A DNA stretch of 64,000 nucleotides from Octopus vulgaris (lineage: Eukaryota): positions 36,394,001-36,458,000 of the forward strand of contig OX597821.1 of the NCBI GenBank assembly GCA_951406725.2. Direction: 5' to 3'. Both the position numbers and the translations under genes were made by a program. Below, in pieces: positions 16,455 through 17,451 of the stretch (within the stretch, counting starts at the first letter, position 1; the number at the start of each line of letters is the position of its first letter). The notes under the pieces were generated by a model, which ran no database searches, was not told where the DNA came from, and saw only the letters and a list, made by a program, of their open reading frames with translations.

Positions 16455-17447
16455 GGATCGATATACGAACACCAGGACAGCAAAAGAGACAGATATAAAA
16501 AAACAAAAAACAATAATGGAATACAGAAACATGAAATACAGAAGCATTAACGGTGAAAACAACAGTGTCTTACGACTGATAACAAGCAAACAAATTTTTT
16601 CTCTGGCGCAATGGAAAAAGCCTTTATAGTGGCGGACGAAAACAGCGATGTTAACAGAACGAGGGTCAGAGGCTGAAAGGCAGATTTCGGCCAACAGTCA
16701 CGTGACAGAGAAGAGGAAAAGAAAAGAAAGAGAAGCAAAGGAAGAGAGAGAGAGAGAGGGACAAACGCAACAAAGAGAGAGAAGAGAGAGAAAGAAGGAA
16801 TCAGAGAGGAGAAGGGATGGGTGTCGAAGAATGACCTGTGAGTGCAGAGCGAGACAAAGAAATAGGAGGGTAGTGGAAGACTAGACCAAAGAATCAGAGG
16901 AAAGAGAAGAGAAAAAGAGGATGAGTAGAGAGAAAAGAGAGAGGGGGACAGATCAAGTAAAAATGAGAGAGAGAGAGAGACAAACAGAGAGTCGTACCAA
17001 TTATTAAGAATATGTGCTCACATAAATGTTAAGGGGGTACGGGGCGCCTGGAATATATGTTAAGGTATGTAGAAAAATACAACATGGACAAGAACGTATA
17101 ACTCTTAGAAGACGACACAATAAACACGGACAGGACATTCGAAACCCTCAGTCTTCAGTCAAGAACCGGATCATCGTAGTAATTTCGGCTGATTAATCTT
17201 GAGATTACTAGATCACGGCCAGCCCTCCAAGAAAAACCAAGCAACGAGCATTAGAAAAACTAAGCTGGAAGCGTAGATTTCCTGGAAGAAGGATCGAATG
17301 CATACGAACACCAGGACAGCAAAAGAGACAGATATAAAAAAACAAAAAACAATAATGGAATACAGAAACATGAAATACAGAAGCATTAACGGTGAAAACA
17401 ACAGTGTCTTACGACTGATAACAAGCAAACAAATTTTTTCTCTGGCG

Positions 17448-17451
<4 letters not shown>
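16455..17451 (-). mobile_element. Non-coding ~840-bp unit with ~160-bp terminal direct repeat, carrying a permuted hammerhead (Penelope terminal-repeat/retrozyme-like)
   Basis: 16455-16612 repeats 17291-17451; (TA)n on both sides; CT-rich tract, GTCACGTGAC at 16697-16706, TATAAAGG (minus) at ~16621-16628. Confidence 0.65.
17152..17224 (-). ncRNA. Candidate permuted hammerhead ribozyme, copy 1
   Basis: GGCTGG-CCGTGATC-TAGTAAT-C-TCAAGA-TTAA-TCAGCC-GAA-ATTACTA-CGAT-GATCCGG-T-TCTTGA-CTGAAGA. Confidence 0.6.

Follow-up and report, generated by a model that had tools for sequence, protein, structure and literature searches.

The locus examined here raises the question of what kind of element carries a predicted, rearranged hammerhead ribozyme in the genome of Octopus vulgaris, and how such an element might move. 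The window, by which we mean the whole stretch analysed, comprises 64,000 nucleotides (GCA_951406725.2, contig OX597821.1, positions 36,394,001 to 36,458,000). A preliminary description of it, made from the letters alone, had recognized a non-coding, hammerhead-bearing unit in three copies and proposed that the unit is circularly permuted and mobilized by a Penelope-type enzyme. We suggest, with a probability of roughly 0.58, that a Naiad-type Penelope-like element supplied the unit as its terminal region, of pseudo-LTR type, and that this region moves although it lacks an open reading frame (ORF) and bears a hammerhead wired in the order II-S-G-C.

The first copy (Table 1) starts mid-unit, wraps round and repeats part of itself, much as had been described. 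Its terminal repeats are identical at 150 of 150 positions with a period of 839, and the match, earlier put at ~160 bp, continues for ~10 bp more with 3 gapped bases at the 3' junction. Circular permutation, which had been ascribed to the unit as such, holds for copy 1 only (1/3); the CT tract is where copies 2 and 3 each begin, and each stops beyond its tail. Copy 2 is collinear with a rotated copy 1 from the E-box to the tail (local score 200 vs a null maximum of 62), at 73–75% identity per module, and its tail does run into a new pyrimidine tract, here a (TC)n run that leads to a short (TA)6; this tail-to-(TC)n junction is common to copies 1 and 2. Copy 3 aligns with neither, scoring 34 from the E-box onward against copy 1 (null 34±5), 30 against copy 2 (null 33±5) and 115 over the whole unit (null maximum 117). 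Neither blastn nor nhmmer nor a covariance model picks it up, and it therefore represents a separate, second family; the covariance model, built from copies 1 and 2, recovers those two only, the next best match having an E-value of 0.16. Of the earlier picture of three copies with one module order, the order itself (CT tract, CACGTGAC, T-rich segment, hammerhead, tail) stands in 3/3 copies, copy 3 being alike in composition too, but that copy is not alignable and the TATA-like box is unconserved in copy 2. Likewise, the claim that all copies abut (TA)n is borne out for the 3' ends (3/3) but not for the 5' ends of copies 2 and 3. The CT tract holds the 5' end or junction of all three copies.

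Table 1. Coordinates of the three copies, their predicted ribozymes and associated features in the window.
Feature	Positions	Strand	Remarks
Copy 1	16456..17451	-	839-bp non-coding unit x1.19, permuted, (TA)n runs on both sides
Copy 1, 5' terminal repeat	17292..17451	-	T-rich segment; 17302-17451 = 16463-16612
Copy 1, 3' terminal repeat	16456..16612	-	3 gapped bases in final 10 bp, where (TA)n joins
Copy 1, TATA-like TATAAAG	16622..16628	-	aligned copy 2 site unconserved
Copy 1, E-box-like site	16697..16706		palindromic GTCACGTGAC; promoter role putative
Copy 1, CT-rich tract	16707..17003	-	85% pyrimidine, (TC)n run at its start
Copy 1, tail	17004..17151	-	3' of ribozyme; copy 2 homology reaches ~17066
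Copy 1, predicted hammerhead	17152..17224	-	order II-S-G-C
Copy 1, stem II	17224-17219 (5' strand), 17192-17187 (3' strand)	-	
Copy 1, extension helix	17218-17211 with 17172-17166	-	
Copy 1, stem III	17210-17204 with 17183-17177	-	
Copy 1, stem I	17202-17197 with 17164-17159	-	
Copy 1, core	H17 = 17203; GAAA 17186-17183; CUGAAGA 17158-17152	-	predicted AUC site
Copy 2	52240..52977	-	homologous unit: CT tract, E-box 52769-52776, T-rich, ribozyme, tail, (TC)n, short (TA)n
Copy 2, predicted hammerhead	52435..52507	-	II-S-G-C, H17 = 52486; stem I 6 bp, III 5 bp, upstream II 6 bp
Copy 2, inverted piece at 5' end	52978..53055	+	matches 52752-52827
Copy 3	62985..63594	+	same module order, E-box 63139-63146, 3' end on long (TA)n
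Copy 3, predicted hammerhead	63403..63476	+	H17 = 63427 (AUA); stem I 6 bp, III 6 bp

The surroundings of copy 1 are themselves repetitive. It is flanked by two similar repeats, 16046-16406 and 17491-17770, each followed by the same imperfect TA run, which we take to be SINE-like; the pair suggests an older tandem duplication whose TA spacer took up the copy 1 insertion. The left repeat differs from the right one by a 24-nt insert (16344-16367) that, allowing for a gap of 2 nt, matches the element tail around 17088-17108; it may be a templated insertion, or else a minute copy of the element. The sequence GGCGCAAT occurs both at the 5' truncation point of copy 1 (17444-17451) and at the head of the right SINE-like repeat (17493-17502), 40 nt apart across the TA run, a possible microhomology. 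A duplication of 96–98% identity and ~2.3 kb period adjoins copy 1 (17926-18939 vs 20247-21281), and elsewhere in the window another short repeat family forms partial head-to-tail tandems at 4552-4972 and 41291-41785, with periods of 184 and 245.

An order-blind scan of both strands looked for CUGANGA, GAAA and UH in any order, the minimum length being 5 bp for stem I and 4 bp for stem III (thresholds chosen after the motifs had been seen). It gave three hammerhead cores across the window, a single one in each copy; every one has the order S-G-C, with 13, 11 and 12 Watson-Crick pairs in stems I and III. In block-wise dinucleotide shuffles (n = 2198) the probability of at least one such locus was 0.009, and three loci were reached in 0 of 2198. 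The hammerhead is thus permuted, as the preliminary description had it, but the order is the non-circular S-G-C in 3/3 copies and not one of the circular orders of types I, II and III. All three copies have CUGANGA, GAAA and U16.1-H17 in register with stems I and III. Copies 1 and 2 show standard pairs in 40 of 40 pair cells (slid controls, 7.5–45% paired) and four two-sided changes, two in stem I and one each in stem III and the stem III extension; a within-pair shuffle control was matched by 33 of 500 shuffles, because two sequences allow little more. Differences between these copies fall at 0/11 core, 9/40 paired and 9/22 unpaired positions of a structure that was derived from the same sequences used to assess the pairing. 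Relaxing the scan by one mismatch gave 7 loci in the window, the 4 additional ones being at chance level.

Several other ribozyme readings came up along the way. Those as type I, II or III hammerheads were rejected because the stems fail to close in the circular orders CGS, GSC and SCG. An HDV-like ribozyme on the plus strand, suggested on visual inspection by a loop like L3 and a helix like P1, misfits at P3, L3 and J4/2, and was dropped because the minus-strand hammerhead also accounts for the conserved bases. A decayed S-G-C candidate lies at 48765-48825 (minus strand; H17 48806), with 6–7 bp of stem I, 2 bp of stem III and 3 bp of upstream stem II, a second CUGAAGA just 5' and GTCACGTGAC ~190 nt upstream; shuffled sequence gives 0.06 per window, a borderline value, and the locus does not align with the other copies. 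At 21610-21665 (plus strand), CUGAUGA followed by AGG...CC GAAA looks like a decayed minimal type I Penelope hammerhead, a locus that failed both scans. Two pattern scans of bacterial and archaeal genomes gave 0 and 0 matches.

The position of stem II sets these ribozymes apart. In the direct register the strand 3' of CUGANGA forms 0 bp of stem II in 3/3 copies; with displacement, a downstream helix of 4 bp is available in copy 1 if 2 nt are allowed to bulge out ahead of GAAA, and in copy 3 after one extra A, but none in copy 2. The best partner of C11.1 lies upstream of block S in 3/3 copies (GGCUGG at −21 in copies 1 and 2, GGGCA at −24 in copy 3), giving a helix of 5–6 bp, 5 bp in copy 3, that is closed in each by G10.1-C11.1 beside GAAA, with shuffle P-values of 0.019, 0.009 and 0.028 for copies 1 to 3 in an offset window picked after the data had been seen. 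Because the best partner is upstream, the predicted wiring is II-S-G-C, with three mutually crossing helices, and because stem II would be closed by a strand 21–24 nt upstream of the cleavage site, A9 would not be joined to G10.1. Nowhere in stem II have both sides of a pair changed between copies 1 and 2. The upstream and downstream options of copy 3 score 12 and 10, so that on the window alone the wiring is a candidate one.

Eckert et al. (2023; PMC10085705) set out six hammerhead block orders, CUGAnGA and its adjacent strands being assumed indivisible, and demonstrated cleavage for SGC and CSG. Apart from a single doubtful GCS case, that paper gives no non-circular permutation from the genome of a known organism, and it traces CSG to two metagenome sequences. 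Their type-SGC (HRIMA-1) is like the window copies in its S-G-C order, crossing stems I, II and III, full core and short linker between stems I and II. According to the same account, however, it takes stem II from the strand right after CUGAnGA, whereas the window copies would take it from upstream of block S, and it is absent from known-organism genomes, whereas these copies lie in microsatellite-rich eukaryotic genomic DNA. The SGC descriptor as given there would miss all three copies, because it requires CUGAUGAG or CUGAUGAUG, and neither occurs in any of them. Type-CSG in that scheme has the strand order II, S, G in common with II-S-G-C, which amounts to CSG with the piece carrying stem I and CUGANGA moved to the 3' end, but CSG keeps A9 and G10.1 joined; in the window CSG was not seen above chance. 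The predicted II-S-G-C wiring falls outside the published six-permutation scheme. Among the openly available papers searched, none was found to describe a rearranged hammerhead in a Penelope-like element, or a stem II drawn from upstream.

The Naiads, a group of Penelope-like elements described by Craig et al. (2021; PMC8557442), offer a natural comparison. As reported there, they use (TA)n targets and form partial tandems and 5' inversions, and the window units are alike in each respect, with (TA)n 3' of 3/3 copies, a tandem in copy 1 and an inversion in copy 2. A T-rich segment before a putative near-3' ribozyme is a further likeness. The descriptions in that paper recognize no canonical hammerhead in Naiads, many of which are marked as core or half-core, fitting no descriptor. 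We read by eye, without a computed control, ~250 nt of the 3' ends of 53 of its 54 consensus sequences (File S5; Cmel left out), and longer stretches of five cephalopod entries and Skow-1. By this reading, S-G-C with an upstream stem II is present in 7 of 53 ends, from octopus, squid, coral and ctenophore. Stems II, III and I have 6, 5 and 6 bp in Obim and Ovul, 6, 13 and 6 bp in Amil and Anas, and 6, 7 and just 2 bp in Bfor; Aacu has one mismatch each in stems II and I, and Esco has 5 bp of stem III and 6 of stem I with stem II decayed to 4/5. The strand after CUGAUGA pairs over at most 2 bp in 7/7 of these ends, and their stem sequences are unrelated to those of the window ribozymes. Complete type CSG was seen by eye in 6 further ends of the 53, all from nematodes (Nbra-1, -2 and -3, Hcon, Hpol and Asuum), with 3–6 bp of stem I, 4–5 of stem II and 6–11 of stem III. 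Neither wiring was found in the part read of the other 40 of 53, among which some consensus sequences are incomplete and some have CUGANGA with its upstream part out of view. Bivalve and hemichordate Naiads in File S5 have a common conserved G+C-rich 3' motif and no CUGANGA, possibly another structured or self-cleaving RNA.

Several further observations bear on how close this relationship is. Four 11-nt motifs of the window ribozymes (two sites, both strands) do not occur in the Naiad supplement, and the window families are therefore distinct from those published. Naiads carry an ORF with an N-terminal GIY-YIG domain and a reverse transcriptase (RT), and the window unit has no such match; in addition, the window unit holds a CT tract and E-box, and copy 1 ends mid-unit. 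Insertion at (TA)n, partial tandems and inversions are not diagnostic of Naiads, because they are common to other Penelope-like clades. Together with the ribozyme wiring in Naiad 3' UTRs, they nonetheless support the Penelope-type link first proposed, and the comparison supports a more specific one, to Naiad-type elements. A Naiad or Penelope-like origin of the unit is, on these likenesses in layout and wiring, probable. Cephalopod Naiads have been described as long inactive (PMC8557442), with which the young appearance of copy 1 is at odds; 31 recently active Penelope-like families are reported for Octopus vulgaris in PMC13282606.

Could the ribozyme be something other than a rewired hammerhead? 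A structured element without catalytic activity, or boxes that match by chance, seems a very improbable reading of the motif. Such a reading would accord with Rfam, which gives 0 matches at the gathering score in the whole window and, at E up to 10 over 15900-17900, 53 matches, none of them to a hammerhead family or any other ribozyme and nearly all on microsatellites; it would also accord with the unremarkable z-scores of nested folding for the three motifs (−0.9, −1.4 and 0.5, not significant). Nested folding is uninformative here, however, because nested models cannot represent three mutually crossing helices, and a chance match would have to place all core bases in register with three helices in three copies of two families. 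We regard conservation of the hammerhead-core fold as very likely and cleavage by the predicted ribozyme as likely. An ordinary type-SGC ribozyme with a short or absent downstream stem II, the upstream strand acting as a regulatory competitor or stabilizer, is a more serious but still unlikely alternative. It draws on the downstream helices of copies 1 and 3, on the extra base between positions 9 and 10.1 that PMC4209133 describes as common in Penelope hammerheads, and on the slow cleavage that hammerheads with 0–1 bp of helix II retain according to PMC13725137. It has to contend with the absence of a downstream helix in copy 2 and its near absence from all seven Naiad ends of the same block order, and with an upstream helix that begins with G-C directly before GAAA in 3/3 window copies and 6 of those 7 Naiad ends. 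That the upstream strand is the active stem II seems to us fairly likely, if less so than cleavage itself.

The unit may carry its own promoter. CACGTGAC has 9 strand matches at 6 loci in the window, against 1.17 expected; the three copies account for three of the six, the decayed candidate hammerhead has another one upstream of it, and in each copy the site sits 290–340 nt upstream of the predicted cleavage site. The earlier attribution of an E-box and a TATA-like box to each copy thus survives for the E-box (3/3), but TATAAAG is found in copy 1 only and is weak, TATAWA being common in the window at 19 per kb, microsatellites included. That no copy has an ORF was confirmed in that none of 284/284 frames scanned has a Pfam match to RT or GIY-YIG, with only weak matches below the cut-off; the frames were stop-to-stop, of at least 55 aa and past a complexity filter, a set from which short or frameshifted relics could escape. 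A protein search with one frame spanning the ribozyme, restricted to near lengths, gave no match.

We propose that a transcript started near the E-box, or reading through from outside, would cut itself after AUC or AUA. Tandem units would then yield unit-length RNA, perhaps ligated into an 839-nt circle, and a Penelope-type RT and GIY-YIG nuclease acting in trans would nick a (TA)n target and copy the RNA. For copy 1, priming mid-unit and copying beyond one unit would leave the identical 150-bp repeat, and a perfect repeat fits what is expected when one molecule is copied past its start. The ends of copy 1 lie off the predicted cleavage site, the 5' end 248 nt upstream of it and the 3' end ~90 nt short of the equivalent position, so a cleaved linear monomer was not the template, and a circle or an uncleaved multimer fits. 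Against a circle, 1/3 copies is permuted, 2/3 are in one phase and each insertion has a single ribozyme; nor is the 839-bp unit highly self-paired, with a z-score of 0.15 and 14 of 20 shuffles folding as well (the linear strand being folded). A circular, more-than-unit model for Penelope-like elements has already been published by Cervera and de la Pena (PMC4209133). We see the chances of a dedicated non-autonomous unit as evenly balanced, and hold a circular, as opposed to tandem linear, template only tentatively.

The units could instead be 5'-truncated 3' ends (pseudo-LTRs) of autonomous Naiad-like families that move through linear RNA, with neither a dedicated element nor a circle. Copy 1 would then be an ordinary partial tandem, produced by template jumping, with a later loss of 290 bp from the 3' end of its second unit. 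Copies 2 and 3, in one phase and ending after the tail, speak for this; copy 3, in which a T-rich segment leads to the ribozyme, a tail of 118 nt and (TA)n, is similar to the 3' end of Naiad_Obim, the 5' inversion is typical of truncated insertions, and the modest self-pairing of the unit agrees as well. It needs, however, an extra deletion that ends cleanly on (TA)n, and does not readily accommodate the tail-to-(TC)n junction of copies 1 and 2, the location of all three 5' ends or junctions in the CT tract, or the 3' UTRs of Naiad_Obim and Naiad_Ovul, which by eye lack both a CT tract and CACGTG. We consider it doubtful on balance. Still less probable is a local duplication or assembly artefact, rather than more-than-unit reverse transcription, as the source of the 150-bp repeat, although the terminal repeats are 100% identical, the duplication of 96–98% identity adjoins, the flanking SINE-like pair looks duplicated too and other short repeats in the window also form partial tandems. 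A tandem duplication of a whole unit would need two more deletions to leave both ends on (TA)n, and the small gap at the 3' junction is, we infer, typical of a priming site.

Retrozymes are the closest functional parallel. Animal retrozymes are defined by type I hammerheads and tandem units (PMC7229834; Li et al. 2026, 10.64898/2026.07.22.740005), and the non-LTR retrozymes of these accounts are, like the window unit, non-coding and hammerhead-bearing, arranged head-to-tail and thought to be moved by Penelope-like enzymes; 839 bp lies within the 51–972 bp range given by Li et al. By the same accounts, non-LTR retrozymes have type I hammerheads, at least 2 consecutive units and highly self-paired circles of ~170–400 nt, whereas the window insertion of 1.19 units has a single rearranged ribozyme and does not stand out in self-pairing. 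Should the circle be real, the unit would work like a retrozyme, but it falls outside the retrozyme definition. Two further classes were considered and rejected: for a DNA transposon or MITE, terminal inverted repeats were looked for and none found, a target-site duplication being unreadable inside (TA)n; for a TRIM or other LTR element, the 3' end is not CA, no purine tract precedes the 3' repeat, and within copy 2 the terminal repeat is matched by an internal, collinear stretch.

There is a genuine permuted partial tandem, but just one, and published models already cover that kind; what is new is the predicted rewired hammerhead common to the window unit and to Naiad ends across phyla. Taken as a whole, the claim would be of a working hammerhead outside the six permutations, with a split between A9 and G10.1 and a fourth strand for stem II, conserved in Naiads from ctenophores to cephalopods, alongside CSG in nematode Naiads and with the window unit as a retrozyme-like Naiad parasite; for this whole, read from sequence, we put the odds slightly above even. 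Non-circular hammerheads have so far come from environmental sequences and one doubtful bacterial case, and animal retroelements would give permuted hammerheads a biological home with many natural variants. An upstream stem II, if true, breaks the assumption that A9 and G10.1 are joined, and bears on hammerhead structure, search descriptors and design. If II-S-G-C and CSG are truly present in Naiads, then hammerheads do belong to Naiads, and many copies in animal genomes have escaped standard searches. This reopens a stated puzzle, Naiads having been taken to indicate that Penelope-like elements can spread without hammerheads. If Naiads carry rewired ones, self-cleavage may be near-universal in Penelope-like elements, and its role in making their partial tandems would become testable.
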